In this document: positions 31,159-45,638 of the stretch, piece after piece
Layout: each line of letters begins with the position of its first letter
Position numbering within the stretch: the stretch's first letter is position 1
Source of the DNA: an uncultured delta proteobacterium
GTDB taxonomy: Bacteria > Myxococcota_A > UBA9160 > SZUA-336
Direction: 5' to 3'
Assembly: GCA_963704165.1 (NCBI GenBank)
Contig: CAVPHD010000012.1
Span: 150,532 to 214,531 of the forward strand
DNA length: 64,000 nucleotides
The notes under the pieces: generated by a model
Seen by the model: the letters and a program-made list of their open reading frames with translations, nothing else
What the model was told of the DNA's origin: nothing
Databases searched by the model: none
Made by a program: the position numbers and the translations under genes

Positions 31159-31171
31159 GGAAGGATCCCCG

Positions 31172-31801
31172 ATGGACGGCTCCATGCTCTCGACCCAGGC
31201 CACGATCGTCATCGTCATGAGCGGCCTCTCGCTCGTCGCGATCTGCGTTCCTCTCTATCGAGGTCTCGCGCTGGCCATGCGCGCGTCGAAGGCGACGCGG
31301 TTCGTGCCTCGTCCCGCGCTCGAGAAGAGCCTGCAATTCTCGACGAAGGGCCCCGCCGACTCCATCGCCGTGCTCATGCTTCGCGTGCTCGCCAAGTCGC
31401 TGCGCTCGCCCGACGCCCGTGCGGTGGCGAGCGACTTCGTCGTCGATGCGAGCCGGCAGTTCGTGATGAACGAGTACGAGTCCAGCTACGCGCGGCCGAT
31501 CTCGATGTACTCGAACCTGCTCCCGCCGATCGGTCTGGCCGGAAACGCGATCGGAATGCTGATCCTGCTGGTCTCGAAGCACATGGCCGGCACGCCGCTC
31601 GAGCTCGGCGCGCTCGGACTCGCGCTGTCGTCGACGATCTTCGCGCTGCTCGGCTACGCGCTGCTCGAGGCGATCAAGCTGCGGCTCTACGGCCGGATGC
31701 TGCGCTGCCTCGAAGAGGTCGTCTCGCTGCACCGCATGGCCGAGGAGCGCGCGGAGCGCCCGGCCGCGTCGGGTGCGGCGCCTCTGCCGTCGCCCGCCTG
31801 A
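31172..31801 (+). CDS. Divergent MotA/TolQ/ExbB proton-channel protein
   Basis: Three TM segments; LLPPIGLAGNAIGM and ALSSTIFAL match the PxxGLLGTVxGM / ALxTTxxGL pattern; RBS GAGG/AAGGA. Confidence 0.75.
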   Translation: MDGSMLSTQATIVIVMSGLSLVAICVPLYRGLALAMRASKATRFVPRPALEKSLQFSTKGPADSIAVLMLRVLAKSLRSPDARAVASDFVVDASRQFVMNEYESSYARPISMYSNLLPPIGLAGNAIGMLILLVSKHMAGTPLELGALGLALSSTIFALLGYALLEAIKLRLYGRMLRCLEEVVSLHRMAEERAERPAASGAAPLPSPA

Positions 31802-31807
31802 TCCGGG

Positions 31808-33943
31808 TCAGATTCGCGGCGGCGTGGCGACTTCGAGCCTCGTCGAGAAGCCGCGTTCCCGAAGCAGGACGGTGACCGGACCGAGCTCCGAGATCTGCTC
31901 GAAGCCGATCAAGTAGACGTCGTAGCGATCGCGCTCGTCGCCGCGCCACGGCACGAGCGCGGGTGTTCCCGCGAGGCCGCGGATCTCCTCGACGACGAGA
32001 TCGGCCTCCGCCCGCGTCGCGCGCGTCGCCACGAGCACCGCGTACGGCGCGCTCGTGAGCGAGCCCAGCGGACCGACGCGAAGCAGCTGGCGCTCGAAGG
32101 CGAGGCGGCGCGTCGTCGATTCAGCCCGCTGCTCCTCCGGTGAGTCGATCCGGGTCGCCTGCACCGCGGTGACGAGGCGCCGCGTTCGTGCGACGTCGCG
32201 CGTCGAACGGAAGAACCAGCCCAGGATGGGGATGTCCATCAGATAGGGCACGCCGGTCACCGTGCTCGCGGTCGTGTCGGCGGGCGCCGCGGCCACGAGC
32301 ATCACCGCACCATCGGTCAGCCGCACGTTCGCATCCACGTCGAACTTGCGCAGCGTCGGCCCGCGCTCCTCGCTCGAGGTCTCCGATTCGCTCACGACCG
32401 TCAACGCATCGGCCACGGAGCTCACCGTGACGTGGAGCTCCAACACGATGATGTCTTCGGTGACGACGGTCGGCGTGATCTTCAGATCGACGCCGACGTC
32501 CTGACGCTGGATCGCGACCGAAGTCACGAACGGATCGGTCGAGCTCGTTCCACTCGCGTCGGTGCCGAAGTCCGTCGTGGCCGCGGCGCCGGACGAGACG
32601 GGGATCGGCACCTGATCGCCGCTGAAGATGCGCTGCTCCTCGCCGGCCGCGGCGAGCAGGTACGGACTGGTCAGCGCGCGGATCGAGACGTCGCCCTGCG
32701 CCGCTGTGATCTGCGCGCCGCCGGTCGGCACGACGGCGACGGTGGGTAGACCGTCGGGCCCGATGATCGGAATCACCAGCGGCGTGCGCGTGAATCGCGC
32801 CAGGAAGGGCTGCGCCTCGGGGGGAGCGAGCAGGCTCGCGGCGTCGCCGATCGCGGTGAACGCGATCGTGTCGTTCGGATCCTCGATGTGGACGAGCGGG
32901 AGCAGCGCGTCGAAGCCGAGCTCGACGCCCTTCGCCGTCTCGACGTCCCAGACGTGCACCTCGATCCCGACCCGCGCTGGGATCCGGTCGAGCTCGCCGA
33001 TCACCCGGCTGACCTGCGCGAAGACCGCGGGCGTCGCGCGGATCACGAGCGAGTTCGTCGCGTCGTCGGTGACGATTTCGAGCGCCGAATCCGGTAGACC
33101 GGAGGCGTCGGCGGACTCGAGCTCGAGTCCGCGCAGATGATCCGCGAGCACTTCGGCCTCGGCGTTCACGACGCGGACGACGTGCACGCCGCTCGCCGAG
33201 CGTGTCGGAAGATCGAGCGTCTCGATCAGGGCGCCGACCTCGGCGACGCGCGCGGGGGGACCCTGGACGAGAAGCGAGTTCGTGCGCGAATCGACGACGA
33301 CACGCCAGGGTCGTTCGGGCGCGTTCCCGGAACCGAACGCCTCGTCGAGCTGGCCGGCGAGCGTCTCGGCATCGGCGTAGCGCAGCGGGAAGACCCGCAG
33401 CTCCGTCTTCGAGGCCTTGTCGAGCGATCGCACCACCACGAGCATCGCGGCGAGACGATCTTCGGGAGCGGCGATGATCAGACCGTTCGTCGCCGGATAC
33501 GGCAGCACGATCGCGGCGCGCGTGTCGCGACCGAGGATGTCGGCGATCTCGTCGGGATCGGCCGAGTCGAGCCGGACGAGGGTCGTCACGAGTCGCGCCG
33601 ACTCGCTCGACGCCTCGTCATACAGCCACGGTGCGGCGCCGCGACTGGCCTCGATCGGCAGGATCTTCCAGATGCCGTCGGGACCGGGAGTCGTCGCGTA
33701 CCCGGTCATCAGGAGCGCCGCGTTCAGGACCTCGAGCGCTTCGTCCGCGGTGATCTCGTCTTCGAGGATGATCGTCGCGCGACCGCGGAGATCCCGGTCG
33801 TATACGAAGCGCTGACCGGTCGCGCGCGCGACCGCTTCGACGATCGCCGTGATCTCCGCGTTGCGGAAGTTCAGCACGAGCCCCTGGCCCCGCGCGGAGG
33901 CGGCGAGCAGGATCACGATCGCGAAGCCGGCGAGCGCGCGCAT
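31808..33943 (-). CDS. gspD: GspD-type secretin with C-terminal SPOR-like domain
   Basis: N0 LNFRNAEI..IVEAVA..TG, three Secretin_N repeats (TNGLII, TNSLLV, TNSLVI), DVGVDLKITP, GVPYLMDIPILGWFFRS. Confidence 0.88.
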   Translation of the reverse strand: MRALAGFAIVILLAASARGQGLVLNFRNAEITAIVEAVARATGQRFVYDRDLRGRATIILEDEITADEALEVLNAALLMTGYATTPGPDGIWKILPIEASRGAAPWLYDEASSESARLVTTLVRLDSADPDEIADILGRDTRAAIVLPYPATNGLIIAAPEDRLAAMLVVVRSLDKASKTELRVFPLRYADAETLAGQLDEAFGSGNAPERPWRVVVDSRTNSLLVQGPPARVAEVGALIETLDLPTRSASGVHVVRVVNAEAEVLADHLRGLELESADASGLPDSALEIVTDDATNSLVIRATPAVFAQVSRVIGELDRIPARVGIEVHVWDVETAKGVELGFDALLPLVHIEDPNDTIAFTAIGDAASLLAPPEAQPFLARFTRTPLVIPIIGPDGLPTVAVVPTGGAQITAAQGDVSIRALTSPYLLAAAGEEQRIFSGDQVPIPVSSGAAATTDFGTDASGTSSTDPFVTSVAIQRQDVGVDLKITPTVVTEDIIVLELHVTVSSVADALTVVSESETSSEERGPTLRKFDVDANVRLTDGAVMLVAAAPADTTASTVTGVPYLMDIPILGWFFRSTRDVARTRRLVTAVQATRIDSPEEQRAESTTRRLAFERQLLRVGPLGSLTSAPYAVLVATRATRAEADLVVEEIRGLAGTPALVPWRGDERDRYDVYLIGFEQISELGPVTVLLRERGFSTRLEVATPPRI

Positions 33944-33988
33944 GCGGCGGAGAATACCGCCGCCGGTCGGCGCGCGCCGTGAAGCGCC

Positions 33989-35494
33989 TCAGACGATCGG
34001 TGCGAACGCGATCAGGGCATCGAAGGACGCGCCCGAGCCGAGGCCGTGCGTCGGCAGGACCGACCCGAAGCTCCCGACGCGGTCGTGCAGCGCCAGGTAG
34101 TTCAGAACCACCGCCTCGGCGAGCAGCGCGACGTTGTTCGCGACCGCGGTCGATGCGGTCTCGACCGACCCGGAGGGCCGGAAGTAACCGATCTGCTGTG
34201 CCGTCGCGCGCGTCATCGCGGGCCGGCCCGTGGGGCTGTAGACCAGAACCAGGTTCGCGGCGGTGTCCGAGCTGTCGCCCTTCCAGATCCCCTTGCCGCG
34301 CCCGTCGGCGGAGTTGTCGAGCACGCCGTCGCTCGAGAGCGAGCCGTCCGAGAGCACGTAGAGCATGAGCGGCGCCGCGCGCCGCGCGGCGAACTCGAGC
34401 GCCGCTCCCATCATCTGACCGGCCAGGAAGTCGCGGACCTCGCCGGTCGCGCGCGTGCTGTCGTGGTAGTCGTAGCCACCCTGCTCGATCGTGCCCGCGC
34501 CCGCGAAGCCTTCGACGACGAGCTTCATCACCGCCGCGGTCTTCGCGAAGCGGCCCTGATTGAGCTCGGCCGCGGTGAAGATCGGATTGGCGCCGGTGGC
34601 GATGTCGGGATCGACCAGCGGGTTCACCAGATCGGGATTTCCGTAGCGCGCGATCAGGTCGGTCGTCTGGGTGTAGTTGCACAGGATCTGAGACTCGAGC
34701 GCCGGGTCCTCGTTCTCGTGCGCGAGCTTGATCGCGCTGATCTCCTCGGCCGCGCGCGCGACCTGCCCGGCCTGCGTCTGGTTCAAGAGCGACACGAGAT
34801 TTCCGGTGTCGATCAGTCCGGTCGCGTCGCGCGCGGAATCGACCTTGGTCGGACGCTTGGTCGGATCGATCATCGACATCGGCGCTTCCGAGTTTCCGCC
34901 CGAGACCGAGCTCACCGAACCGACGAGCGTGACGAGCTCGCCGTCCGCGCCGGCGCGGTTGATGCCGTACATGGGATTGTGCGGGTTGTTGTCGGTGTCG
35001 TTGTCGGAGCGCGCGCAGAAGATCGTTCCGTTGACGTTCGCACGCGTTGCAGCCGAGGTCTTCGACAGGATGCCGCGCAGGAACGCGCTGTCGGAGTGGA
35101 ACGCGATGCCGAGCTCGGTGTTCACCTGACCCGCGTTGCCCGGCGTCATGTCCGAGGGCAGGCCGAGCTTCGAGTAGCCTTCGCCGGTGAGGAGATCGAG
35201 CTGACCGCCGGGTCCACCGACGAGAACGTTCGAACCGGCGATGCTCGCGCCTCCGGCGAGATCGATGCACAGGAACGGAATCAGCCCCGCGCCCGCGCGC
35301 AGCACGCAGCCCGCGCCCTGAGCGCGCGCGGTCGAGGCGCGAAGCAGCGAGAGCAGCGTCGGCGCCATGACCAGGCCCGCGCCCGAGAGCAGCCCGCGCG
35401 CGAGGAAGTCGCGGCGCGTGACCGGACGCCGGTGGTCCTCGAGCCGGAGCGGCGCGTCCGCAGGGTGGGTGTGTCTTCGCTTCATCTCGCTCAC
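33989..35494 (-). CDS. Tat-exported uncharacterised protein (DUF1501-like)
   Basis: Twin-arginine TRRDFL leader; IDLAGGA, GGYDYHD, SDGS motifs. Confidence 0.75.
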   Translation of the reverse strand: MSEMKRRHTHPADAPLRLEDHRRPVTRRDFLARGLLSGAGLVMAPTLLSLLRASTARAQGAGCVLRAGAGLIPFLCIDLAGGASIAGSNVLVGGPGGQLDLLTGEGYSKLGLPSDMTPGNAGQVNTELGIAFHSDSAFLRGILSKTSAATRANVNGTIFCARSDNDTDNNPHNPMYGINRAGADGELVTLVGSVSSVSGGNSEAPMSMIDPTKRPTKVDSARDATGLIDTGNLVSLLNQTQAGQVARAAEEISAIKLAHENEDPALESQILCNYTQTTDLIARYGNPDLVNPLVDPDIATGANPIFTAAELNQGRFAKTAAVMKLVVEGFAGAGTIEQGGYDYHDSTRATGEVRDFLAGQMMGAALEFAARRAAPLMLYVLSDGSLSSDGVLDNSADGRGKGIWKGDSSDTAANLVLVYSPTGRPAMTRATAQQIGYFRPSGSVETASTAVANNVALLAEAVVLNYLALHDRVGSFGSVLPTHGLGSGASFDALIAFAPIV

Positions 35495-35504
35495 CTCTTC
35501 CGTG

Positions 35505-37670
35505 CTAGTGCAGCTGCACCGCGGCGCTCGATAGCACCGCTGCGCAGACGCCCTTCACGACGTTTCGCGTGTGGCTCGCCGGGCACGACGCCGCGCTGCA
35601 CCCCGCCGTCAGCTGGTCGATCAACGTGTCGAGGTGCGAGCGCACCTCGGACGCGGCCGGCTGGTTCGCGAGCGACGTCCCGAGCATTTGCGTCGAGATG
35701 GGAGCGATCACGGAATCCCGTTGCGCCGTCGTCGAGAACGCGGTCGTGGCGGGCAGGGTCCAGTCGAAGCCCGCGCCGAAGAACGCGGTCCGCAGGGTCG
35801 TGTTCTCGATCATCTGATCGCAGTAGTCGAGCGCGAGCCGCGAGATGCCGACCTGGTGCGCAGAGACGAAGGCCTCGACGTCGCTGTCGCCCGGCAGCGC
35901 CTGCTGCAGCTCGATCCAGGTCGCGCGCACGATCGCATTGGTCGCGGGAACACCCGTGATCTCGGACATCGAGTCGTTGATCTGCGAGAAGTCGCGGATG
36001 CCGATGCCGGCCGACGGCAGGACCACGCCCGGCGTGGGCGGCGGAGATCCCGGCAGATCGACCATCGGGCTCGAGAAGTCGCCGATCGCGTCGAAGAAGA
36101 CGTGGAAGACGTCGAGATCGACGCCGAGATCCTTCGGCACGACCTGACACTGCTCGGAAAGCCGCGTGCTCGTCTGCGTGATCGCGGTGTCGAGCAGGCG
36201 GAAGCTCTGGCTCGCGACCGGCGCCACGCCGTTCACCGAGATGCGGATCGTCTGCACGCTGAAGCCCGTCCGCCCGCCGGAGTTCAACACCGGTGCGCAG
36301 AACAGGTAGCTGTAGGCGTCGAACTCGCTGACCGTGAACTCGACCCAGGCGTCCGGCGCGAGCGCATCGTCGAGCCCGAAGCGCAGCGTGTAGCGCTGGT
36401 TCGCACCGGCGAGGAAGTTCTGCGTGATCTGCTCCTGCGTGAGGATGTCCTCGTAGATGGCGACGAGCTTCACGATTCCGTGCCACGCGCGGTTGTTGCT
36501 CGTCTCGTTTCCGACCGCGAACGTGTACCCCGGGTCCCAGCTCACGAGCAGGGCGGGTGCGACCTCGTCCACGTCGTCGGTGAAGACGCCATCGACGAAG
36601 ATGCGCCGACCGCGCGTCTGGTCGTAGGTGAGCACCACGTGCTGCAGCATCGCCTGCAGGTCCTCGTCGGCGTCGGCCGTGACGAGCGCGGGTTCGCCGT
36701 TCGTGCTGACCAAGGGGTTCACGCTGCGATTGCGGTAGACGTAGTTGTACATGACCTGGCCGAGCATGAAGTTGCGCGCGCCGGTTCCGCTCGAGTACGA
36801 GAGGATGCGCGCGGGACCTTCCTGCGTCGTGTTCGCCGGGATCAGCCAGCTCTCGATCGAGTACTGCTGCATTCCGCTGCCGCTCGCGAGCTCGTTGTAG
36901 AGCTTGCGGCTGTCGGTCGCGTTCGAGCTCGCCTTGCCGCCGGTGAACTCGAGACCGCCGCCGGAAACCCAGCCGACGTCGCCCGAGAGCGCCAGGTTCA
37001 TCGTCGGGCCGACGCGGCTCGTGTCGAGCGCGACCGATCCCGAGCCTTCCGCGAACTTCCAGAGCGCGATCGGGTTGCCCTCGTAGCGCCCGCTCTCGGC
37101 GCGGACCGCGGAGAGGAACGTCCGCCCGTCGCTCGCGATGATCGTCGGCGGGATCTCCGTTCCCGGATCGTTCGGATCGGGATTCGCGACGACGACCGCG
37201 TCGGCCCAGAGCTGGATCGCGGCCTGCATCGCGTCGGCGTCGGAGTCGCAGTTGTTCCAGCAGAAGTGGCGATCCGTGCGCAGGCGCTCGACCAGACGCG
37301 AGCGCGAGGGATCGAGCAGGTTCACCTTCTGGTTGTCGATCACCGCGCGAAACGCCGTCTCGCCGTCGGGATGCGAGATGTGCGGGAAGCCCGGACCCGA
37401 ACCGACGTGACACTGCACGCAGTACTGCCGCGTCAGCGGATGGACGTTGGCTTCGAAGGCCGCCTGCCCGATCGCGCCGCCGCCCGCGGGCACGCCGACA
37501 CCCACACCGCCGCCACCGGCGCCGGTATTCGACGGCACGTTCGTCGGCGCGGAGCCGATGTCGCGGCCGCCTTCGCCCTCGCCGCCGCCACCCCCGCCGC
37601 CACCACAGCCCGAGGCCGCGACGAGGACCGAGAGCGACAGCGCAATCGTGTAAGTCCGGCTCGTGCTCAT
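35505..37670 (-). CDS. Lipoprotein with c-type heme motif and LamG-like jellyroll domain
   Basis: Lipobox ASGC with Gly linker; CVQCH; LamG motifs ALWKFAEGSG, YSIESW, HVVLTYD, IFVDG, WHGIVKLVAIY; Cys-rich C-terminus. Confidence 0.82.
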   Translation of the reverse strand: MSTSRTYTIALSLSVLVAASGCGGGGGGGGEGEGGRDIGSAPTNVPSNTGAGGGGVGVGVPAGGGAIGQAAFEANVHPLTRQYCVQCHVGSGPGFPHISHPDGETAFRAVIDNQKVNLLDPSRSRLVERLRTDRHFCWNNCDSDADAMQAAIQLWADAVVVANPDPNDPGTEIPPTIIASDGRTFLSAVRAESGRYEGNPIALWKFAEGSGSVALDTSRVGPTMNLALSGDVGWVSGGGLEFTGGKASSNATDSRKLYNELASGSGMQQYSIESWLIPANTTQEGPARILSYSSGTGARNFMLGQVMYNYVYRNRSVNPLVSTNGEPALVTADADEDLQAMLQHVVLTYDQTRGRRIFVDGVFTDDVDEVAPALLVSWDPGYTFAVGNETSNNRAWHGIVKLVAIYEDILTQEQITQNFLAGANQRYTLRFGLDDALAPDAWVEFTVSEFDAYSYLFCAPVLNSGGRTGFSVQTIRISVNGVAPVASQSFRLLDTAITQTSTRLSEQCQVVPKDLGVDLDVFHVFFDAIGDFSSPMVDLPGSPPPTPGVVLPSAGIGIRDFSQINDSMSEITGVPATNAIVRATWIELQQALPGDSDVEAFVSAHQVGISRLALDYCDQMIENTTLRTAFFGAGFDWTLPATTAFSTTAQRDSVIAPISTQMLGTSLANQPAASEVRSHLDTLIDQLTAGCSAASCPASHTRNVVKGVCAAVLSSAAVQLH

Positions 37671-37673
37671 CGC

Positions 37674-38858
37674 CTAGTTCCCCATGCAGTGCGCGGCGGT
37701 TTCCGCGAAGACGCGCTTCATGCTGTGGTTCTCGGTCTCGAAGACGTCCGCGATCGTCTGCACCGCGAGCCGGTCCTCGGCGGATTCCGGCACACGCAGG
37801 CAGACGCGCCGGAAGACCTTCTCGACCTGGCACTCCGAGAACGCGCGGGTCGAGGCCACTTCCACGCCGAGGCTCTTGGGTCCGTTGCCCGAAGCGGACG
37901 GACCCTCCCAACCCAGCGACGAGTTCGGCCCGACACGCCAGGGGTTCAGCCAGCGGTCGTCGACGGTGACGTAGCCGCCGGGGAACGTGTTCGCGTTGAT
38001 CAGATGCTTGGGCGCAACGCTTCCGCGCGTGAAGACGACGCGCCCGAGCGCCTCGTCCCACTCGAAGAAGGCGAACGCGCCGGCGAGCGGGTCCATGCCC
38101 GCGTGACAGCCGACGCAGGTGTTGTGGAAGATCCGGCTGTCGCCGCCCGGACTGCGGCTGATGTCCTGTCGGATTCGATCCGCCGGGCGCGTGATGTCGT
38201 TCAGCTGTTCGAGGTCGCGGCACAGGAAGTTCATCGCGGTGAAGCGCAACATCCGGCGGTTCGTGCCCGCGGAGAAGAACGCTTCTCCGGCGGCGCGCGT
38301 CGTCAGCACACCCGCCGTGTCTCCCGTCGCGATCGAAGCGCCGGGCAACGTGGACTGCGGCCGCTGCACGAGCACCGCCGGATTCGAGAGATCCGCGCGC
38401 GCCTGCTCGAGCTGTTGGTAGTGCAGATTGTCGGTCTGGGAGTAAGCCGCTCCGACCACCCCCGGCGCGCCGACATAGACCATGTCGGCCCAGAGAACCT
38501 GGTCGAACGGCACGTCGTCCCGGATCATGCCGATCACCGTCGCCGAGTAATCGTTCAAATCGGCGAAGACGGTCTGTGAGACGTTGGTCCAGGGCGTGAC
38601 GAAGTTCTTCAGCGCCGAGACGTAGAAGATCGGGTTGTCCATCGCGGTGTAGGCCGCGGTGAGCGGATCGCCGCCGTCGATCGACACCTGCATCGACGTC
38701 AGCACGGCCTCGGACGGCGGCACGCCGACGAGGCGATCGTGCATGCGTTTCGCCTGCTCGCGCGAGCCCGCGTTCGCGTCCCCGGGCCAGGCTCCCAGCA
38801 GCACGAGCCACAGAGCCGCCAGGAGTGGCGTTCCGATCGGAGTCCGAAGCCAGCTCAT
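37674..38858 (-). CDS. Exported c-type heme protein (DUF1585/DUF1588-like)
   Basis: Signal peptide (DANA); GVLTTRA, GTNRR, CVGCHAGMD, FSECQVEKVF..C. Confidence 0.78.
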   Translation of the reverse strand: MSWLRTPIGTPLLAALWLVLLGAWPGDANAGSREQAKRMHDRLVGVPPSEAVLTSMQVSIDGGDPLTAAYTAMDNPIFYVSALKNFVTPWTNVSQTVFADLNDYSATVIGMIRDDVPFDQVLWADMVYVGAPGVVGAAYSQTDNLHYQQLEQARADLSNPAVLVQRPQSTLPGASIATGDTAGVLTTRAAGEAFFSAGTNRRMLRFTAMNFLCRDLEQLNDITRPADRIRQDISRSPGGDSRIFHNTCVGCHAGMDPLAGAFAFFEWDEALGRVVFTRGSVAPKHLINANTFPGGYVTVDDRWLNPWRVGPNSSLGWEGPSASGNGPKSLGVEVASTRAFSECQVEKVFRRVCLRVPESAEDRLAVQTIADVFETENHSMKRVFAETAAHCMGN

Positions 38859-39012
38859 CCGCGCTCCTCGACGCCCCTCGCCGATATCACCTCTTCGGTG
38901 AGATCCCCTGTCGCACAGCGTGAGCCGGCGCACGGTCGCGAACTCGTCTGCGCGTTCGCAGGTGAAGGCCGGCCGATGTGCACGAGTTGCGCATTCGCGA
39001 TGTCCCAGTCGG

Positions 39013-39028
39013 TGTGCGTTGAGTCACA
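39013..39028. promoter_or_regulatory. CRP/FNR-family-like operator in the divergent promoter region
   Basis: TGTGC-GTTGAG-TCACA, 9/10 match to TGTGA-N6-TCACA. Confidence 0.4.
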
Positions 39029-39090
39029 TCGCGCCGCGCGCGCCGGTCGATGAGGTGCGGGGACTCGAGGGGACGAAGGAAGTGCGGAGC

Positions 39091-39600
39091 ATGGTGACGT
39101 TCGGATTCGTCGTCGCTGCGATCGGAGCTGCTTGCGTGTCGCTCGCTTCGGGACCGGCGCGCGCCGCGGACGAGGGCGAGCTCGCGCCCGTGTTCTCGGC
39201 GAAGTCCCTCGACGGCGAAAGCACGATCTCGCTCGGCGCCTACCGGGGCAAGGTCGTGTATCTCGACTTCTGGGCGTCGTGGTGCGCTCCGTGTCGGACG
39301 GCGCTGCCCGCGATCGAGAAGCTGCGCACGGAGTTCCCGGCGCAGGACTTCCAGGTCATCGCGGTGAACGTCGACACCGACGTCGAGAAAGCGCTGCGGC
39401 TGATGGCGGAGCACAAGATCGGCTACCCGAGCGCGGCGGATCCCGACGGCGTGCTGCCCGAGACCTTCGGCCTCAAGACCATGCCGACCTCCTACCTGAT
39501 CGACCGCGCGGGCGTGGTGCGGCTGGTGCACCCGGGCTTCCGATCGAGCGACGTCGAGAAACTGCGCGCCCAGATCAAGACGCTCGTGGAGGCGAAGTGA
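39091..39600 (+). CDS. TlpA-family thiol-disulfide oxidoreductase
   Basis: Signal peptide; GKVVYLDFWASWCAPC; MPTSYLIDR. Confidence 0.95.
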   Translation: MVTFGFVVAAIGAACVSLASGPARAADEGELAPVFSAKSLDGESTISLGAYRGKVVYLDFWASWCAPCRTALPAIEKLRTEFPAQDFQVIAVNVDTDVEKALRLMAEHKIGYPSAADPDGVLPETFGLKTMPTSYLIDRAGVVRLVHPGFRSSDVEKLRAQIKTLVEAK

Positions 39601-39905
39601 TGAAACGGATCGCGGTCTGTCTGGCGGCGCTCGCGATGTCGGGCTGCGGGACCTTCCTGTGGCCGAGCGACGATCTGCCGGACTTCGAGGCGTACAGCGA
39701 GCATCCGCGGAGCTATCTCGAGATCTGTCTCGAACACGACTTCCTGGTGCGCGTGAAGCCGTGGGAGCGCGCCGTGCTCTCGCGCGACGACATGGCCTGG
39801 GTGCCGGATCCGCTCGAGGGATCGCGAAGGCGGCACACGTTCTTCAGCAAAGAGGCGTCGTTGCCCGGCGGTGGCGCGGCCGGTGGAGGCTGCGGGTGCA
39901 ACTGA
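39600..39905 (+). CDS. DUF4266-family lipoprotein
   Basis: Lipobox MSGC; VKPWER, FSKEA, C-terminal GGGCGCN. Confidence 0.9.
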   Translation: MKRIAVCLAALAMSGCGTFLWPSDDLPDFEAYSEHPRSYLEICLEHDFLVRVKPWERAVLSRDDMAWVPDPLEGSRRRHTFFSKEASLPGGGAAGGGCGCN

Positions 39906-41134
39906 AACGGGCGACGAAGACGGGAAGGGAGTCCGCGACCTTGCGCGCGCTCCAGGCGAGCGCGCTCGCGCTCTCGGGCATGGCGCGCGTCGCCGCGGGT
40001 GACGCGCCGATCGACCAGGTCTACAGCTCGTACAGCTTCTCGAGCTACGACGAGGACGAGCTCGAGGCGTCGAAGGGCTTGCCGCTCGCGGATGGCGAGC
40101 GCTACTCCGTCTCGACCCATCAGGCGATGCTCGCCGCGCCACTCACCGAACGCATCGACTTCTCGCTCGAAGTCACGCACGAGACGATGAGCGGCGCGAG
40201 CCCCTGGTACACGGTTCCCGACGCGGGTGGAGCGCCGATCCAGGTCATGAGCGGCGCGACGATCGAGGATTCGCGCGACGACTTCCTCCTGCAGGCGAAC
40301 TACTTCTACGAGAACGCGCGGATCGGGCTCTCGAGCGGCTACTCGGGCGAGAACGACTACACCGCGATCAACTTCGGTTTCAACGGCGAGACGCACTTCA
40401 ACGAGAAGAACACCACGCTCTCCGGCGGATTCGGCGTGTCTCTCGACGAGATCGATCCGACCGACGCCGACCTGTACGCGACGCGGCCGAGTCACGAGTC
40501 GAAGCAGACCTATTCGCTGAACGTCGGGCTCTCGCAGATCCTGAACCGCCGCTCGATCGTCCAGTCGAATGTCTCCTACGCGTTCGGCACCGGCTACCTC
40601 TCGGATCCGTACAAGCAGGTCTTCGCCGTCGGCGGCGTGTTCTTCTCGGACGAGCGCCCCGACGCGCGCCACGGGCTCTCGTGGCTGACGCGGTATCGCC
40701 GGCACATCGAGGAATTCGAGGCGACGGTGCACCTTGGGTACCAGTACTACTTCGACACCTGGGGAGTCAGCTCGCACACGATCGAGGCCAGCTGGTACCA
40801 GTCGTTCGGCGACAACCTGCAGATCACGCCGACCGTCCGCTACTACACGCAAGAAGAAGCGGACATGTACGTGAACTACCTTCCGCTCGGCGCGACGGGC
40901 GGCGGCGAGTACTCGAGCGACTACCGGCTCTCGAGCTACGGCGCGCTCGGTCTCGGCCTCTCGGGCGAGTACACGCTGCGCACGCGCTGGGTCGCCGACA
41001 TCGAGTGGAAGCTCAAGCTCTCGTACGAGCGCTATCTCTCGAGCGCCGACCTCGCCTTCAACGGCCCGTCGGTGGAAGCTCCCGGGCTCGTGAGCTTCGA
41101 CGTTTTCTCGATCGGGATCCGCGCGGCGTTCTGA
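39896..41134 (+). CDS. DUF3570-family outer-membrane beta-barrel with two flavinylation motifs
   Basis: ETMSGAS and QVMSGAT motifs; ENDY, GYLSDPYK, ERPDAR, DTWG..SHT, SSDYRLS; terminal Phe. Confidence 0.88.
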   Translation: MQLKRATKTGRESATLRALQASALALSGMARVAAGDAPIDQVYSSYSFSSYDEDELEASKGLPLADGERYSVSTHQAMLAAPLTERIDFSLEVTHETMSGASPWYTVPDAGGAPIQVMSGATIEDSRDDFLLQANYFYENARIGLSSGYSGENDYTAINFGFNGETHFNEKNTTLSGGFGVSLDEIDPTDADLYATRPSHESKQTYSLNVGLSQILNRRSIVQSNVSYAFGTGYLSDPYKQVFAVGGVFFSDERPDARHGLSWLTRYRRHIEEFEATVHLGYQYYFDTWGVSSHTIEASWYQSFGDNLQITPTVRYYTQEEADMYVNYLPLGATGGGEYSSDYRLSSYGALGLGLSGEYTLRTRWVADIEWKLKLSYERYLSSADLAFNGPSVEAPGLVSFDVFSIGIRAAF

Positions 41135-41139
41135 CCGAC

Positions 41140-42057
41140 ATGCTGCGCGCGCGTCACCCGTTCCGTGCGATGGGCTCGCCGTGCGAGCTGCACCAGTACG
41201 GCGCTTCCCAGCGCACGTGCGATGCGCTCGCCGAGCGCGCGATCGGCGAGGTGCGCCGCCTCGAAGCGAAGTACTCGCGCTACCGCGACGACAGTGTGAC
41301 CTCCGCGATCAATCGCGCCGCCGGTAATCCCGCCGGAGTCGACGTCGACGACGAGACCGCGGCGCTTCTCGACTACGCCGCAACCGCGTTCCGCTCGAGC
41401 GACGGGCTCTTCGATCCCACGTCGGGCGTGCTCCGCCGCGTCTGGAACTTCAAATCCGCCCGCGTGCCCACGCGCGCCGAGATCGACGCCGTCCTGCCGC
41501 TCGTCGGCTGGCAGCGCCTGTCGTGGCAGCGCCCGCGCCTGGTCCTGCCGCGCGCCGGCATGGAGCTCGACTTCGGCGGCTTCGTGAAGGAGTACGCCGC
41601 CGACCGCGTCGCCGCGCTCTGCCGCGAGCACGGCCTGCGACACGGAATGGTGGACCTCGGCGGCGACCTCGCCGTGATCGGCCCGCACCCCGACGGCTCC
41701 CCCTGGATCGTCGGCATCCGCGACCCGCGCGCACCGAAGCACGCGATGGCGAGCGTCCGCCTTCCCGCCGGCGCCATCGCGACGAGCGGCGACTACGAAC
41801 GCTGCATGGTCGTCGACGGCGTCCGCTACACGCACGTCCTCGACCCGCGCACCGGCACGCCCGTCACCGGCCTGCGCAGCGTCAGCGTCGTCGCCGACGA
41901 ATGCCTGATCGCCGGCACCGCCACCACCGTCGCCATGCTCAAGGGCACCGACGGCGGCCCCCTCTGGCTCGACGACCTCGGCCTGCCCAACCTGCGCATG
42001 GACGACGCGGGCGAATTGAGCGGGACACTCGCGAACGCGGAGCGCGACGCAGCGTAG
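41140..42057 (+). CDS. apbE: FAD:protein FMN transferase (ApbE family)
   Basis: FRAMGS, SRYR.DS, FDPT, LDFGGFVKEYAAD, IATSGDYER, HVLDPRTG. Confidence 0.95.
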   Translation: MLRARHPFRAMGSPCELHQYGASQRTCDALAERAIGEVRRLEAKYSRYRDDSVTSAINRAAGNPAGVDVDDETAALLDYAATAFRSSDGLFDPTSGVLRRVWNFKSARVPTRAEIDAVLPLVGWQRLSWQRPRLVLPRAGMELDFGGFVKEYAADRVAALCREHGLRHGMVDLGGDLAVIGPHPDGSPWIVGIRDPRAPKHAMASVRLPAGAIATSGDYERCMVVDGVRYTHVLDPRTGTPVTGLRSVSVVADECLIAGTATTVAMLKGTDGGPLWLDDLGLPNLRMDDAGELSGTLANAERDAA

Positions 42058-42125
42058 GAGTCAGCTCGGACGGCCCGGATCCGCCGGATTGCCGTGCCAG
42101 TGACACGGACGGGTCACTGCGCTCG

Positions 42126-42266
42126 GGTAACTCCTACCGAGGCGCCGCGTCACCGCGCGAAGAGGCGAACAAGGACGAAGACTTCGGTTGACGCCACCTG
42201 TGCCGCGCGAAATGATACCGAGGCACCGAACGGGGTGTCCGGTGCAGCACGGCAAGTTCTGTGCGG
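42126..42266 (+). promoter_or_regulatory. Integron platform copy 1: GGTA-N5-TACC motif, Pc-like promoter and degenerate attI
   Basis: TTGACG(42188)-17 nt-AATGAT; collinear with 46812-46952 at a constant offset of 4686. Confidence 0.65.
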
Positions 42267-42295
42267 ATGGATCGCGCCGCTTCGGAGGATCCAGG

Positions 42296-42988
42296 ATGCG
42301 AATTGGAACTCGTCTTGCCTGTATGCTTGTGGTCAGCGCTGCAGCGATTCCCCTCGCTTCGGCGGCGGCGCCGATCTCAGTTGCCGGGTTCTTCTTTGCG
42401 AACGGTGAAGACGACTTCGCGCAGAACGCCGTTGTCGTCTCCGGTACGGTCACCGGCTCCTCCGCTGCGCAGGTGCGGGCTGTTCTTGTCGGTAGCAACA
42501 TCTCCGACAGCATCCGAGTGATCACGCCAGATATCGCGGTGATTGAAATCACTTTCGGCTCCCGGCAGATTCTCAACTTGGTTGGTCCCGATGCCGTGAT
42601 CTTTGAGCTCTCCGGAGATCAGGCGGTAGGAACGCCGAACTACAACGAACGGTTCGAGGTCAGCGTATTCAACGGCACCAACTTCACCCCATTCCAAGTG
42701 GTGATCCCCCTGGCAACGGGTTTTGACGACCCTGCTGACGCAACGCTCGACGTATTCGCCGTACAGCTCGATCTGTCCGACTACGGGATCGCTGCCGGAG
42801 CTTCCACTGATCGTATCCGCATTCGCTTGGTAGACAATCTCGTCACGAGGTCCGCGGATCCAACAGCAGTCGGGTTGCTCCATTCGGTTCCGGAACCTCC
42901 CACGATTAGCTACGTGGGGGCTGTTCTCTTGATCGGATTCGCAGTGCGCGCGAGTTTCCGGACTCGGAGCCCGCATAACACCCGTTAG
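42296..42988 (+). CDS. Cassette-borne PEP-CTERM surface protein
   Basis: Signal peptide (LASAA); C-terminal VPEP, TM helix and basic tail. Confidence 0.8.
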   Translation: MRIGTRLACMLVVSAAAIPLASAAAPISVAGFFFANGEDDFAQNAVVVSGTVTGSSAAQVRAVLVGSNISDSIRVITPDIAVIEITFGSRQILNLVGPDAVIFELSGDQAVGTPNYNERFEVSVFNGTNFTPFQVVIPLATGFDDPADATLDVFAVQLDLSDYGIAAGASTDRIRIRLVDNLVTRSADPTAVGLLHSVPEPPTISYVGAVLLIGFAVRASFRTRSPHNTR

Positions 42989-42990
42989 CC
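42973..42990 (+). repeat. Collapsed attC (R'' and R' only)
   Basis: GCATAAC-ACCC-GTTAGCC; its R' pairs with the next cassette's R'' (GGCGAAC). Confidence 0.65.
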
Positions 42991-43004
42991 CGACGCGACG
43001 ATGG

Positions 43005-43033
43005 TTGCTTGAATGCGTCGAACGCGTGAGAAT
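43005..43033 (+). promoter_or_regulatory. Cassette-internal sigma70 promoter of a leaderless TA operon
   Basis: TTGCTT-17 nt-GAGAAT, ATG 6 nt downstream. Confidence 0.55.
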
Positions 43034-43039
43034 TCGTCT

Positions 43040-43261
43040 ATGCCGCGCTTCTCCCCAGCCGAGATCGAGCAGCTGAGCGTCGCCGAGCGAGTTCAGCTGG
43101 CCGAGGATATCTGGGACAGCATTGCCGCTGCGCCGGAGATGTTGCCGGTAACGGAAGTCCAACGCGCCGAGCTCGACCGGCGGCTTGCTCTGCTCGGTCA
43201 GGATCCTTCGCGAACCGTCCCGTGGGACGAGGTTCGCTCGAAGCTTTCGCAGGCTCGTTGA
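43040..43261 (+). CDS. Addiction-module antitoxin (TIGR02574-like)
   Basis: LSVAERVQLAEDIWDSI...QRAELDRRL...VPWDEVR. Confidence 0.9.
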   Translation: MPRFSPAEIEQLSVAERVQLAEDIWDSIAAAPEMLPVTEVQRAELDRRLALLGQDPSRTVPWDEVRSKLSQAR

Positions 43262-43551
43262 GCATTCCAGTCGTCTTTACGGCGGCGGCGGAAGCCGATG
43301 TCGAAGAGGCGCATCTCTGGTACCGCGAGCGCGGCCTGGGCCTTGGCGACGATTTTGTGCGAGCGGTCGACGCATCCGTGGCCGGGATCGCGCGGCACCC
43401 GGATGGCCACTCCGTGGTTCACCGCGATGTGCGGCGCGCGCTGTTGCGACGCTTCCCGTACGGACTCTTCTACATCGTTCAGCCCGACCGAGTTGTCGTC
43501 GTGGGCTGCTTTCACGCGGCTCGAGACCCGCGGATCTGGCGATCGCGCTGA
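43258..43551 (+). CDS. RelE/ParE-family toxin
   Basis: AEADVEEAHLWY..GLGDDF, RRALLRRFPYGLFY, FHAARDP; TTGA overlap. Confidence 0.9.
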   Translation: MSIPVVFTAAAEADVEEAHLWYRERGLGLGDDFVRAVDASVAGIARHPDGHSVVHRDVRRALLRRFPYGLFYIVQPDRVVVVGCFHAARDPRIWRSR

Positions 43552-43554
43552 GCG

Positions 43555-43686
43555 GGCGAACGAGAACTTGCAGCTGCCGAGCGCCCGCTTTGGTCTGTCC
43601 AGCACCGGGAACGTCTGGGATCATCGTCGCATCGTTAATCAACAACACGGCGCGGGCTCTCGCAGCTGAAGCCCAAGTCGTTATAC
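43555..43686 (+). repeat. attC site, 132 bp (family A)
   Basis: GGCGAAC...GTTATAC; TTGCAGCTG/CAGCTGAA inner boxes; similar to 48173 and 49711. Confidence 0.9.
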
Positions 43687-43707
43687 GGACAGGAAGGGGA
43701 CGAGAGC

Positions 43708-44640
43708 TTGTCAACAGCGCGAAAGCGCGTCGCGCTGTTCTATGCGCTGACGTTCCTGCTTCTCGCAGCGGTTCCGATTCTTCACGGCCTCTTCGCTGGC
43801 GGGCCAATGAACTTCGCCGCGGCCGGAGCGCGAGCCTCCGTTGAAACGGGAGTGGCATGGACCTCGAACTTGCTGGTCATGGTGCGTCTGTGCCTGGCGG
43901 AGCCAGTGCTCTGGCTGATCGTGTTCGGATCCGCGGTTCCGAGCATCGCGGCGCTGCTGGTGGTCGCCCTGAACCGGTCGGCACTCGGTTCCTTGCTCGC
44001 ACGGCTCGGGCCGCGAGTGCCATGGCGGCCCGCCCTGATGGACTACGGCCTCATCTTCGTCCTCATGGTCGGAGGGCTCGTTGCCGTCTCCGTGCTGAGA
44101 TCGTTCCTTCCGGGCCCGGAGTACGTGCGCCCCGAGAGCTTCGTGGGCCCGGGTCTCGTCGTGGCCGTGCTTGCGGCGGCGCTTCTCGATCAGGGCGCCG
44201 TTCTTGAGGAACTAGGATGGCGCGGGTTCGCGCAACCGGAGTTGCAGGCGAGTCGCCTTAGCCCGTTGGTTGCGGCGATCGTCGTCGGAATCGGATGGGG
44301 CCTCTGGCACGTGCCCCGAGACCTGACCGGCGGGGTCGTCGAGCGGCTCGGTGTTCTGCAGTACCTGCTGCTGTATCTCCCGAGCTTTCTCGCTGGAACG
44401 GTCACGGTGTCCATCATTGCTGCCTACTTCGTGAACCGTGCATCCGGAAGCGTGCTCCCGGCCATCATCGTGCATGGGCTGAGCAATGATTCGGCTGGCA
44501 TCTCCGGGGCCGCAACCATGGAGCTTGCGCTGTCCCCGTATCACCAAGCGACGAAGGCGTTGCCGTTTGCGCTTCTCGCTGTCGGCATCGTTCTTGTTGC
44601 GGGGAAGTCACTCGGCCTTGCTCGACGTAGAGCCGTATAA
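43708..44640 (+). CDS. Cassette-borne CPBP/CAAX intramembrane protease (Abi family)
   Basis: EELGWRG, WGLWH, AIIVHGLSN; the TAA stop lies within R''. Confidence 0.9.
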   Translation: MSTARKRVALFYALTFLLLAAVPILHGLFAGGPMNFAAAGARASVETGVAWTSNLLVMVRLCLAEPVLWLIVFGSAVPSIAALLVVALNRSALGSLLARLGPRVPWRPALMDYGLIFVLMVGGLVAVSVLRSFLPGPEYVRPESFVGPGLVVAVLAAALLDQGAVLEELGWRGFAQPELQASRLSPLVAAIVVGIGWGLWHVPRDLTGGVVERLGVLQYLLLYLPSFLAGTVTVSIIAAYFVNRASGSVLPAIIVHGLSNDSAGISGAATMELALSPYHQATKALPFALLAVGIVLVAGKSLGLARRRAV

Positions 44641-44749
44641 CAAGCCGCTGAGGCTGACGGCCGCCGGCTTCAGTCGCGCGGGCGGTCTCGCTCGACACGA
44701 GTCGTGGTAGGCTTACGCGCGGCCGCAGCTTGGCGGCCATCCGTTCGCA
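44635..44749 (+). repeat. attC site, 115 bp
   Basis: CCGTATAAC is the exact complement of the cassette start GTTATACGG; ends GTTCGCA. Confidence 0.9.
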
Positions 44750-44780
44750 AGGCAGCGAAAGCCGCGAGGAGGCCCACTCA

Positions 44781-45638
44781 ATGCCCCACCCTGCCCTCAC
44801 TCCGAACCGCACGGCGGTGATCACCGGCGGCGCCAGCGGCATCGGCTTTGCTACGGCGGAACGTCTCGTGGCGATGGACCTGAACGTCTGCATCGCGGAC
44901 CATGACGGGGAAACGCTCGGCTCCGCGGCCGACGCACTTGCAAAGCAGGCCGCCAGGGGCGTGGAGTCGATCCTCGCGGTGCCGACCGATGTCGCGCGCC
45001 TTGAGTCGGTCGAGGCGCTCCGGGACGCTGTGCTGGATCGCTTCGGCGAGGTCGCAGTGCTGATGAACAACGCCGGGACGGGCGGAGGCGGTAGCCCCTG
45101 GCAGAACTACGAGGGCTGGCAGCGGGTCCTCGGCGTGAACCTCTGGGGCGTGATCCACGGCCTCCAGGTCTTCACGCAGAGGATGATCGGCCAAGGCACC
45201 CCCTGCGCGATCGTGAACACGGGCTCCAAGCAGGGCATCACCAACCCACCCGGAGATGCCGCGTACAACGTATCCAAGGCCGGGATCAAGAGCTTGACCG
45301 AGAGCCTCGCCCACCAACTCCGGAGTCTCGACGGCTGTCGAGTCACGGCGCACCTGCTGGTGCCCGGCTTCACTTACACGGGCATGGTGAGACGATTCCT
45401 GAAGGAGAAGCCGCCTGCCGCTTGGCTGCCCGAGCAGGTGGCGGAGTACCTGCTTGCAGCGATGGAGCACGGCGACTTCTACGTGCTGTGTCCAGACAAC
45501 GAAGCGACGTCCGAGATCGACTCCCGGCGCATCGAGTGGGCGGCAGGCGACATGACCGAGAACCGACCGGCGCTCTCGCGCTGGCATCCGGATTACCAAG
45601 CCGCCTTTGCGGCCTTCATGGCCAAAGCGCGCGACTGA
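44781..45638 (+). CDS. Cassette-borne SDR oxidoreductase
   Basis: TGGASGIG, NNAG, YNVSK; RBS GAGGAGG. Confidence 0.93.
   Translation: MPHPALTPNRTAVITGGASGIGFATAERLVAMDLNVCIADHDGETLGSAADALAKQAARGVESILAVPTDVARLESVEALRDAVLDRFGEVAVLMNNAGTGGGGSPWQNYEGWQRVLGVNLWGVIHGLQVFTQRMIGQGTPCAIVNTGSKQGITNPPGDAAYNVSKAGIKSLTESLAHQLRSLDGCRVTAHLLVPGFTYTGMVRRFLKEKPPAAWLPEQVAEYLLAAMEHGDFYVLCPDNEATSEIDSRRIEWAAGDMTENRPALSRWHPDYQAAFAAFMAKARD

Follow-up and report, generated by a model that had tools for sequence, protein, structure and literature searches.

Two divergently transcribed gene sets in a 64,000-nucleotide stretch of DNA from an uncultured delta proteobacterium (the window), a haem/LamG/Tat trio and a thiol/flavin outer-membrane module, are very probably linked in function. 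We read the trio as a secreted surface haem enzyme that would receive cytoplasmic electrons via an interchangeable wire, an interpretation that we offer tentatively, as possible rather than probable when taken as a whole.

Layout and extent of the locus

ORF calls across the window recovered all seven predicted genes at the place and in the orientation given by a preliminary description of this DNA, and their motifs and divergent layout were likewise confirmed at the coordinates that it listed. Leftward, on the minus strand, lie a Sec-exported, mono-CxxCH protein of 394 aa with CVGCH at residue 248 (37674-38858; hereafter protein A), a CVQCH/LamG lipoprotein of 721 aa (35505-37670; motif at residue 84, PF13385 with E 5.6e-13 at 267-415), and a Tat-signal protein of 498 aa (33989-35485; TRRDFL). 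Rightward, on the plus strand, lie a TlpA/ResA-like exported thioredoxin (39091-39600; WCAPC, AhpC-TSA with E 6.8e-24), a DUF4266 lipoprotein (39600-39905; E 1.7e-18, C-terminus GCGCN), a DUF3570 protein that is likely an outer-membrane barrel (39896-41134; E 4.3e-67, SGAS at residue 99 and SGAT at residue 119), and an ApbE-family protein (41140-42057; E 5.4e-77). The right half corresponds to a cluster already described in the literature, ApbE/DUF3570/DUF4266/thioredoxin(/DsbD) (PMC8238504); the left trio is an unnamed and split relative of planctomycete-type modules of PSCyt cytochromes and Tat proteins.

The limits first drawn around the locus (33989..42057) enclose the genes described but proved too narrow, as the locus reaches past them on both sides to include a GspC/GspD secretion pair, DsbD, and ExbB/ExbD-like, motor-like genes. 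Among 30 of 81 unassigned neighbour ORFs (16 loci), the one further shared member was a small outer-membrane barrel, and GspC gave no match; no Rfam RNA was found within 25000-45000.

In the divergent intergenic region, a strandless box at 39013-39028 (TGTGC-N6-TCACA) shows one mismatch to the CRP consensus TGTGA-N6-TCACA, and a second, degenerate CRP-type site (38919-38934, also strandless) lies where close relatives carry a second box. Box statistics in the window alone are marginal (2 matches against 0.3 expected, with 6 of 100 shuffles reaching 2); in relatives, a CRP-type box upstream of the CVGCH gene is conserved far above shuffles and kept across all architectures. The box is CRP-type, and only the second part of the original label "CRP/FNR-like" had to be given up, since the FNR consensus does not fit it. 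The divergent gap contains no sigma-70 promoter match.

Association of the two halves and exchange with PCC3

Co-occurrence of the halves across genomes, proposed earlier as a check on their association, is borne out both across the class and in Gammaproteobacteria, and the seven genes remain together in two bacterial phyla. Our survey of 191 class genomes found 72 with both protein A and DUF3570, 9 with A only, 8 with DUF3570 only, and 102 with neither (phi 0.82), such that 72 of the 81 trio-bearing genomes also carry DUF3570; as a control, the PCC3 porin gives a phi of 0.27. Where A and DUF3570 are both present, they lie within 5.5 kb of each other in 66 of 72 genomes. The DUF3570 and ApbE subfamilies differ between the two phyla (about 20-25% identity). 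Within the trio, gene order is all but constant: where the flanking sequence is long enough, A is followed by the LamG gene in 75/75 loci and this in turn by the Tat gene in 59/60, two long-LamG loci having been set aside, both of which have a Tat gene.

The trio does not always have the same partner. Within 7.5 kb upstream, across 51 trio loci, we found DUF3570 at 39, the multihaem-wire cluster PCC3 at 8, both at none, and neither at 4. PCC3-type genes stand directly upstream of A in six of the nine A-positive, DUF3570-negative class genomes (G175, G177, G178, G179, G182 and G187), all of which belong to one family, and in Gammaproteobacteria with a PCC3-adjacent trio a second A copy lies 6-7 kb from DUF3570 (6/6 checked). 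Testing a single origin for the PCC3 association did not lead to its rejection (p-AU 0.145); given this result and the confinement of the six class genomes to one family, the swap between PCC3 and DUF3570 may reflect few events. We rejected the idea that PCC3 replaces DUF3570 genome-wide, as 19 of the 22 genomes lacking a trio-adjacent DUF3570 carry one elsewhere; where checked, this DUF3570 is part of either another copy of the trio or a different operon. No DUF3570 match at all was obtained in G001, G002 and the six class genomes with a PCC3-adjacent trio, and the trio motifs there are the same. PCC3 is also common without the trio (20/55), and the source genome itself has PCC3 elsewhere, on contig C4, outside the window locus. 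Since the trio's neighbour in some genomes is instead a multihaem-wire cluster, the trio likely needs electrons; because trio copies swap to such a partner, we lean toward the DUF3570 module acting as an electron conduit for the trio.

The thiol/flavin module

The best NCBIfam match of the TlpA-like protein is ResA, below cut-off, and the C-terminal CGCN of DUF4266 is present in 45/45 ORFs. The DUF3570 protein, whose start codon is uncertain, scores 227 bits against a Pfam cut-off of 25, and the terminal residue is aromatic in 41/41 full-length ORFs. Its SGAS and SGAT motifs are candidate FMN sites, both with Glu or Gln at the position of the canonical motif's Asp; gammaproteobacterial DUF3570s mostly carry SSAS (24/41 ORFs), and only 15/41 have two [ST]GA[ST] motifs. 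The premise of the preliminary description that ApbE attaches flavin at such motifs holds for Chlorobium luteolum, whose DUF3570 is flavinylated at both motifs (PMC8238504), the one pair for which covalent flavinylation by the cognate ApbE is established, but carries over less securely to the window. In the ApbE here, only 9 residues precede the conserved core, and by inspection there is neither a hydrophobic leader nor a signal peptide; the protein keeps the catalytic Ser, His and Arg, and its Gly259 aligns with the triad Asp of the Listeria enzyme 7esa (ApbE uses a Ser-His-Asp catalytic triad; PMC12052999). With the signal peptide and triad Asp missing from the enzyme and Glu or Gln replacing Asp in the motifs, FMN loading of this DUF3570 is uncertain, and flavinylation at the locus is not assured. 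The source genome encodes another ApbE on contig C4 (C4:325165-326184).

DsbD (51428-53143, minus strand; DsbD_N, DsbD_TM and thioredoxin) lies 9.4 kb from ApbE, displaced by an 8.6-kb low-GC insert; relatives have it near ApbE or TlpA, and in other families of the class the TlpA operon begins with it. Since DsbD hands electrons to extracytosolic thioredoxins (PMC8238504), its presence in the cluster argues for an outward electron direction, and the copy within the window is a plausible electron source for a TlpA-DUF4266-DUF3570 chain.

The same genes could instead provide a maturation service, in which DsbD, TlpA and DUF4266 would prevent oxidation of the CxxCH thiols ahead of haem attachment and put the trio's disulfides in order, and DUF3570 would act in folding or placement at the outer membrane. 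Both DsbD and proteins of the TlpA/ResA type have classical parts in the maturation of cytochrome c, and the trio is rich in cysteine: C213, C343, C353 and C391 of protein A are conserved at 90-95%, and the lipoprotein and Tat protein each have several conserved Cys. DUF4266/DUF3570/TlpA also flank unrelated surface proteins (bioRxiv 10.1101/2023.06.07.544157). What makes this service unlikely, in our judgment, is that trio copies adjacent to PCC3, which is no maturation system, have unchanged motifs, some of them in DUF3570-free genomes, and that the source genome has cytochrome c assembly genes of its own.

The haem/LamG/Tat trio

Protein A falls below all Pfam cut-offs, the window protein having no Pfam match. 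By profile comparison, it is homologous to DUF1592-DUF1588-DUF1585 (PSD4-PSCyt3-PSD2), the C-terminal half of planctomycete-type cytochromes: hhalign against the C-terminal half of DUF1592-type proteins (17 reference proteins) gave a probability of 96.9 and an E of 1.6e-10 over 284 columns, and 75 of 116 protein A family members match PSD2 at E up to 0.05. The family comprises 1586 representatives at 50% identity, including cultured Gammaproteobacteria (two Lentisalinibacter strains), and we found no plasmids carrying it. The haem motifs of the preliminary description fared well as motifs, the CxxCH being near-invariant (82/82 close ORFs and 129/130 distant full-length homologues), and they make protein A and the lipoprotein candidate c-type cytochromes, with haem binding itself at candidate status. 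The predicted fold of protein A is all-helical; its model matched no solved fold (best Z 6.0, to short helical pieces), which does not imply a novel one. Searching solved structures by sequence gave no significant match for DUF3570 or for the families of protein A and the Tat protein.

The lipoprotein consists of a CxxCH domain and a LamG domain followed by unnamed middle and C-terminal domains. Its relatives have 1-3 CxxCH motifs, and some bear an Ig-repeat stalk of ~1000 aa, for a total of 1692-1815 aa. The LamG domain matches sialidase carbohydrate-binding modules (E 1.4e-5). We considered whether the C-terminal domain is a relocated PSD3, but the match to the PSD3/PSD5 region, the N-terminal half of the planctomycete-type cytochromes, spans 32 columns at a probability of 0.6 and is not significant with the small reference sets used (8, 15 and 17 sequences across the DUF1501, DUF1552 and PSD3 comparisons).

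A twin-arginine signal is present in 58/60 full-length ORFs of the Tat protein family, and the window protein has no Pfam or NCBIfam match; its automatic name, "general secretion pathway protein GspF", was discarded for lack of a T2SSF match. Neither it nor any of 15 homologues gave a significant profile match to PF07394 or PF07586, and a link to DUF1501 or DUF1552 was set aside, profile-profile comparison with the same small sets not being significant; it does show a language-model likeness of 0.92 to a cluster that is 45% DUF1501, and a local GGYDYH/GGWDTH match. The preliminary description left this protein without a fold, and structure prediction now assigns it that of the alkaline-phosphatase/sulfatase superfamily: the model (pLDDT 89.4) matches superfamily entries at Z 8.9-11.7 in all 50 matches listed, the best with Z 11.7 and rmsd 4.5 over 241 residues, and the best Foldseek E is 1.1e-3. 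Residues D75, T164, D339, H341 and D404 are invariant in the family, and D380 nearly so (full-length numbering). Mapping of the metal ligands was by motif and secondary structure, and on this motif reading two His ligands of the canonical phosphatase site are apparently substituted. The Tat protein is the most conserved trio member (88-94% in close relatives).

Secretion pair and motor-like block

Directly after the Tat gene lies a second GspD-type secretin (31808-33943, minus strand), whose C-terminal 130 residues look SPOR-like by eye and have no Pfam match. A second GspC (50641-51438, minus strand; T2SSC and PDZ) lies on the other side; in close relatives it directly follows ApbE, and a GspC adjoining the locus was found only in the source genome's family. 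The main T2SS of the genome is on a different contig. This second GspC/GspD pair, together with the Ig-stalk versions of the lipoprotein, leads us to place the trio probably at the cell surface.

Further left, a plus-strand block comprises an ExbD/TolR-like protein (26974-27423) with the invariant Asp in its membrane helix and weak Pfam support, a membrane-anchored proline-rich protein of TonB-like layout (27420-28589; compared with G038, it is frameshifted by one base near 28428), an exported 681-aa protein of no family (28590-30635) whose class distribution tracks A and DUF3570, a conserved lipoprotein of no family (30628-31158), and an ExbB/TolQ/MotA-like protein (31172-31801; PF01618 matched by 8/11 family members). 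The trio and redox module might be imagined as heading a proton-driven machine of the envelope, in a sensing or catalytic capacity (for adhesion, surface-polymer building or modification, or something motility-like), that is switched on by a CRP-family regulator. The 681-aa gene matches A in 72/81 genomes (phi 0.83), the block stays near the trio through several rearrangements, and surface phospho-transferases, among them EptA and LtaS, have the fold predicted for the Tat protein; in one gammaproteobacterial locus, moreover, the DUF3570 module continues into TPR, TolQ, two ExbD and AgmX/PglI-domain genes of the Glt core. That locus is the only one in which the Glt link was followed to its end, however, and the window block gave no AgmX/PglI, GltE, GltG or other Glt match in NCBIfam (only weak ExbB and ExbD matches), which indicates two different motors. 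Furthermore, the 681-aa marker is absent from the six PCC3-type class genomes, which keep the trio, and we regard such a machine as an improbable explanation.

A proposed surface haem enzyme with an interchangeable electron supply

For the preferred reading of a surface haem enzyme, we propose that the three trio proteins (A, the CxxCH-LamG lipoprotein and the Tat protein) likely assemble into a single haem-c enzyme complex, which would likely be exported to the cell surface through the dedicated secretin and would draw on cytoplasmic electrons. These would flow outward from DsbD to TlpA, to the CxC pair of DUF4266, and on to the FMN sites in DUF3570, the predicted barrel; the ExbB/ExbD-like genes may energise substrate uptake or handling. 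The weakest step is the substrate, which might be an extracellular glycan: LamG would bind it, a haem reaction dependent on reductant would attack it, and the subunit with the phosphatase fold would trim it. A glycan is a guess by analogy, and a rather unlikely one, hinted at by the sialidase-type match of LamG, by the carbohydrate-binding modules that PSCyt proteins bear and the sulfatases that they neighbour (PMC5615132), by detection of a CBM2-DUF1592 protein in a biomass-bound secretome (PMC6004670), and by the DUF1800/DUF1501 pairs that accompany bacterial chitin synthases (PMC5122149). These hints come from distant relatives. Doubtful as a whole is an extended version, in which the trio would be the founding, single-copy representative of a type-II-secreted class of surface haem enzymes (PSCyt/DUF1501-like modules) acting on extracellular polymers with cytoplasmic reductant, the DUF3570 module would be a haem-free flavin/thiol outer-membrane wire exchangeable for PCC3, and the barrel would be flavinylated in the cytoplasm by the divergent ApbE before export.

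The trio might alternatively be the terminal part of extracellular respiration or of mineral or humic redox (Fe, Mn, organic shuttles), with LamG and the phosphatase fold as accessories. Secretin-dependent surface cytochromes are known in Shewanella, but each trio subunit with haem motifs would have only 1-3 haems, the flux through a DsbD/thiol relay is low, and the pronounced conservation of the Tat protein suggests a catalytic rather than an accessory part. Even with adjacency to PCC3, which was proposed for extracellular electron transfer (PMC5566968), we consider this quite unlikely. That the two halves are unrelated neighbours, as the other contexts of the DUF3570 module and the four loci with neither partner might suggest, is largely refuted by the class survey and locus counts, and very improbable given adjacency in two phyla despite differing DUF3570/ApbE subfamilies and the shared upstream CRP-type box.

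Four gene sets each known only from sequence converge here: DUF3570/DUF4266, the PSCyt/DUF1501-like modules, PCC3, and Glt-type motors of non-gliding bacteria. If either partner served the trio, DUF3570 could be assigned a concrete function, the conduction of electrons at the outer membrane, and the clients of PCC3 would extend beyond iron. The large trio family, with its cultured Gammaproteobacteria, makes the question accessible to experiment, and a low-copy trio is easier to delete than multi-copy planctomycete-type modules.

Comparison with known systems

PCC3 as an alternative partner of the trio, the enlarged locus, the conservation of the box and the atypical ApbE are new here; our search of the openly accessible literature found no paper on the trio or its DUF3570/PCC3 link. 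The closest match is the DsbD system of Meheust et al. 2021 (PMC8238504), which in the available part of that paper has the same four-gene operon with two [ST]GA[ST] motifs, the CxC tail and DsbD nearby; relative to it, the window adds the haem/LamG/Tat trio, the secretion pair and the motor-like genes, and its ApbE differs as described above. The trio follows the same CxxCH and Tat-partner logic as the PSD4-PSCyt3-PSD2 modules with Tat DUF1552 proteins, and, with LamG in addition, as the PSCyt1/PSCyt2/PSD1(+LamG) modules with DUF1501 (Kamneva 2012, PMC3542564; He 2017, PMC5615132). Unlike these, it consists of two separate genes and a Tat partner with no significant DUF1501/DUF1552 profile alignment, and it mostly occurs once per genome, together with a fixed set of envelope genes, whereas the known modules are often multi-copy (as many as 15 PSCyt3 matches in a single genome). 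The Tat protein shares its predicted fold with the alkaline phosphatase/sulfatase/NPP superfamily, from which it departs in its 5-13% identity, the lack of a favoured subfamily, and an altered metal-ligand set.

The PCC3 clusters adjacent to the trio correspond to those of He et al. 2017 (PMC5566968, as far as the available part of the paper goes) in their 21-haem cytochrome, second multihaem cytochrome, porin-like protein (assigned by inspection) and membrane protein with SGxxG and WxxxHx13H; in that part, PCC3 is proposed for Fe(II) oxidation with a model that runs inward, and a link to the trio is not mentioned. Finally, the likeness to the Agl-Glt core complex described in Gammaproteobacteria (Luciano et al. 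2011, PMC3169522) is that both lineages have a TolQ/ExbD/TonB-like block next to the cluster, but the five-gene block of the window is of a different family, without AgmX/PglI, GltE or GltG, and is accompanied by GspC/GspD.

Gene content and linkage of the two halves

All seven open reading frames of the preliminary description are borne out by the sequence, with their orientation and motifs. Leftward lie protein A (an exported CVGCH protein, 37674..38858), a CxxCH/LamG lipoprotein (35505..37670) and a Tat protein (33989..35485), together the trio; rightward (39091..42057) the Pfam names are TlpA-like thioredoxin, DUF4266, DUF3570 and ApbE. LamG is the sole Pfam match in the left half; neither A nor the Tat protein matched a Pfam or NCBIfam family.

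A scan of GTDB genomes confirmed at least 594 of at least 599 candidate stretches, of which the best 80 were studied; titled close loci are labeled Myxococcales, Myxococcota or Deltaproteobacteria. The LamG gene comes next after A in all 75 informative loci, with the Tat gene following in order in 59 of 60. The architectures are myxococcal-type (I), with a DUF3570 module that includes DsbD; gammaproteobacterial (II), where the module is joined by two small barrels and by a hydrazine-synthase-alpha domain protein that has two CxxCH motifs; and PCC3-type (III), with a porin–multihaem cytochrome cluster matched to the description in the accessible part of PMC5566968. Many loci of types II and III from Gammaproteobacteria carry a Trm112-like plus carnosine-N-methyltransferase-like gene after the Tat gene (L078:5960-7327 and 21 other loci), which is not found in the source genome.

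The gene content and linkage of the locus are matters of direct observation. Among 191 genomes of the source genome's class (at least 80% complete), A was present in 81, DUF3570 in 80 and both in 72, giving a phi of 0.82, which is too high because kin are not independent; the PCC3 porin, as a control, gave 0.27 in class genomes. In 66 of the 72 the two genes lie at most 5.5 kb apart, and in the remaining 6 they are on different contigs, so that the anticipated co-occurrence of the two halves across genomes holds within the class. Deletion scars are visible at two loci. At L104 (genome G191) a remnant of the Tat gene is all that accompanies the retained DUF3570 module, secretin and motor block; L111 (G143) has remnants of A and of the Tat gene fused to each other.

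The DUF3570 module and its ApbE

The earlier claim that DUF3570/DUF4266/thioredoxin/ApbE clusters are recurrent and functionally unresolved agrees with PMC8238504, which describes such clusters with DsbD as well as 316 that lack it, and reports that both motifs of C. luteolum DUF3570 are flavinylated, terming its function uncertain. In the window, GspC (50641-51438) and DsbD (51428-53143) lie 8.6 kb past ApbE, beyond a lower-GC (63%) insert (42100-50600) whose genes, named by inspection, include toxin–antitoxin-like pairs, an HNH-like gene (45799-46746), a CPBP-like membrane protease and a short-chain dehydrogenase. Five same-genus loci have no insert at the corresponding place and run from ApbE directly to DsbD and GspC; in a sixth, GspC lies 3 kb after ApbE. 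In other families DsbD is the first gene of the TlpA operon. Elsewhere in the source genome, another DsbD is accompanied by a redoxin gene (C6:168330-171163), and another ApbE has as neighbors a small gene for a putative FMN-binding protein and one that is porin-like (C4:325165-328554). A second DUF3570 type in the class has far longer open frames, mostly 850-1000 aa, possibly fusions (G043:C32:50517-51935 and 18 similar matches).

In the window ApbE, the conserved core is preceded by 9 residues, without a hydrophobic leader. Aligned with the Listeria enzyme (7esa), it matches at Ser, His and Arg, and its Gly259 stands opposite the Asp of the catalytic triad as given in PMC12052999, which also states that cytosolic ApbEs exist. 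Of 46 ApbE rows from a motif scan of the studied loci, some of them duplicates, 33 scored as Gly-type without leader, from myxococcal-type loci and two other DUF3570 operons; the 12 gammaproteobacterial-locus rows have Asp or Glu at this position, and 10 have a leader.

PCC3 as an alternative partner

Among 51 loci with 7.5 kb of upstream sequence, DUF3570 was found in 39, PCC3 in 8, both in 0 and neither in 4. Nine class genomes have A and lack DUF3570: in six, all of one family, the genes immediately upstream of A are PCC3-type; the others are G075 (where DsbD and TlpA lie at the end of a contig), G060 (a contig of 4.6 kb) and G143 (remnants only). Simple replacement of DUF3570 by PCC3 is opposed by the presence of DUF3570 elsewhere in 19 of 22 genomes without it beside the trio. 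Nine Proteobacteria have a trio next to PCC3; six of them were checked, and in all six another copy of A was located 6-7 kb from the DUF3570 in question (one such copy is interrupted); thus each copy of the trio tends to be paired with a trans-envelope partner of its own. In trees, PCC3-linked copies from myxococcal and gammaproteobacterial loci are placed apart, and a single origin of the link is not rejected (p-AU 0.145 with 41 selected rows). PCC3 occurred without the trio in 20 of 55. The source genome has a complete PCC3-type cluster away from the trio (C4:395261-403886; a membrane protein, 21- and 15-haem cytochromes, a porin-like protein and an Fe-S/FAD flavoprotein).

Secretin, motor-like block and regulation

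Directly after the Tat gene lies a second secretin; the main type II secretion system, with its own GspD, is on contig C9. A five-gene block (26974-31801) stays with the locus through several rearrangements and encodes an ExbD-like protein (PF02472 match in 2 of 13 family members), a proline-rich protein, a 681-aa exported protein, a lipoprotein and an ExbB/TolQ-like protein (PF01618 in 8 of 11). The 681-aa gene accompanies A in 72 of 81 genomes and was not found in the six PCC3-type class genomes. The proline-rich gene (27420-28589) has a one-base frameshift near 28428 that carries the reading frame on into the following gene, giving a 1071-aa ORF; its frame is intact in genome G038, and the frameshift may be a sequencing error. 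One rival explanation, to which this block is pertinent, holds that the locus is a motor-driven surface machine.

We searched for TGTGA-N6-TCACA with at most 2 mismatches, up to 450 bases upstream of the A match, excluding 5 duplicates and loci with less than 300 bases upstream, and took expectations from base shuffles. Boxes were present in 32 of 36 type I loci (2.3 expected), 38 of 44 type II (5.9), 13 of 15 type III (1.8; two of the 13 on CxxCH codons) and 7 of 11 others (1.1). Four matches to the CRP family were found in the source genome, as were 25 sites within one mismatch of the box. Another CRP-type box, with one mismatch, just upstream of the ExbD-like gene (26924-26939) suggests co-regulation of the motor block.

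Properties of the trio proteins

Homologues of A number at least 6866 at 90% clustering (1586 representatives at 50%). CxxCH is kept in 82 of 82 close ORFs and in 129 of 130 full-length distant homologues (29-59% identity), in which the GTNR motif is invariant. At E values up to 0.05, of 116 family members, 75 matched the planctomycete-type cytochrome domain PSD2, 17 PSCyt2 and 8 PSCyt3, and the family can be aligned to DUF1592-type proteins over their C-terminal half (alignment probability 96.9). A is confidently predicted to be helical (pLDDT 93.6), and the model has no match among solved structures. The lipoprotein has 1-3 CxxCH motifs; in four versions linked to PCC3 its length is 1692-1815 aa, and both of those that were scanned contain Ig repeats. 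The predicted Tat protein model (pLDDT 89.4) has an alkaline-phosphatase/sulfatase fold (Z up to 11.7), and the family has invariant Asp, Thr and Asp-x-His positions. Its likeness to DUF1501, the Tat-protein family paired with such cytochromes, appears in motif and language-model features; profile tests showed no significant match to DUF1501. A conserved P-x-x-H-x-x-H-x-R-P stretch precedes the twin arginines, in the long N-region of the Tat signal (35380-35485, minus strand), and resembles a chaperone or processing site.

Proposed mechanism and relation to known systems

The trio is most likely an exported haem-c complex that receives reductant, a mechanism of which we infer every biochemical step. 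Export would use Sec and Tat, with the dedicated secretin as the next step. Reductant would pass from DsbD to TlpA, to the DUF4266 CxC pair and to FMN on DUF3570, and in other copies would arrive via PCC3; a rival reading gives the thiol module a maturation role. The substrate is the weakest part of this explanation. An extracellular glycan is favored, because LamG has sialidase carbohydrate-binding modules as its nearest solved relatives and distant trio relatives have carbohydrate ties (in excerpts of PMC5615132, PMC6004670 and PMC5122149); a further rival is mineral or humic redox.

In the literature covered, including part of PMC11334425, with PCC3 followed chiefly via the same portion of PMC5566968 and without supplementary file 1 of PMC8238504, which may list such clusters, the trio, its DUF3570 link and the PCC3 swap were not found. 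The right half is of a published kind and the left half is like published modules. In one gammaproteobacterial locus, followed to its end, the DUF3570 module continues into a block like the Glt core (PMC3169522, in part). Taken together, homology, fold and motifs indicate that the trio shares the working logic of PSCyt plus Tat-protein modules (PMC3542564; PMC5615132, in part) but lies outside their Pfam families, and the locus is an undescribed variant, real and widespread, in which known kinds of unexplained systems come together.
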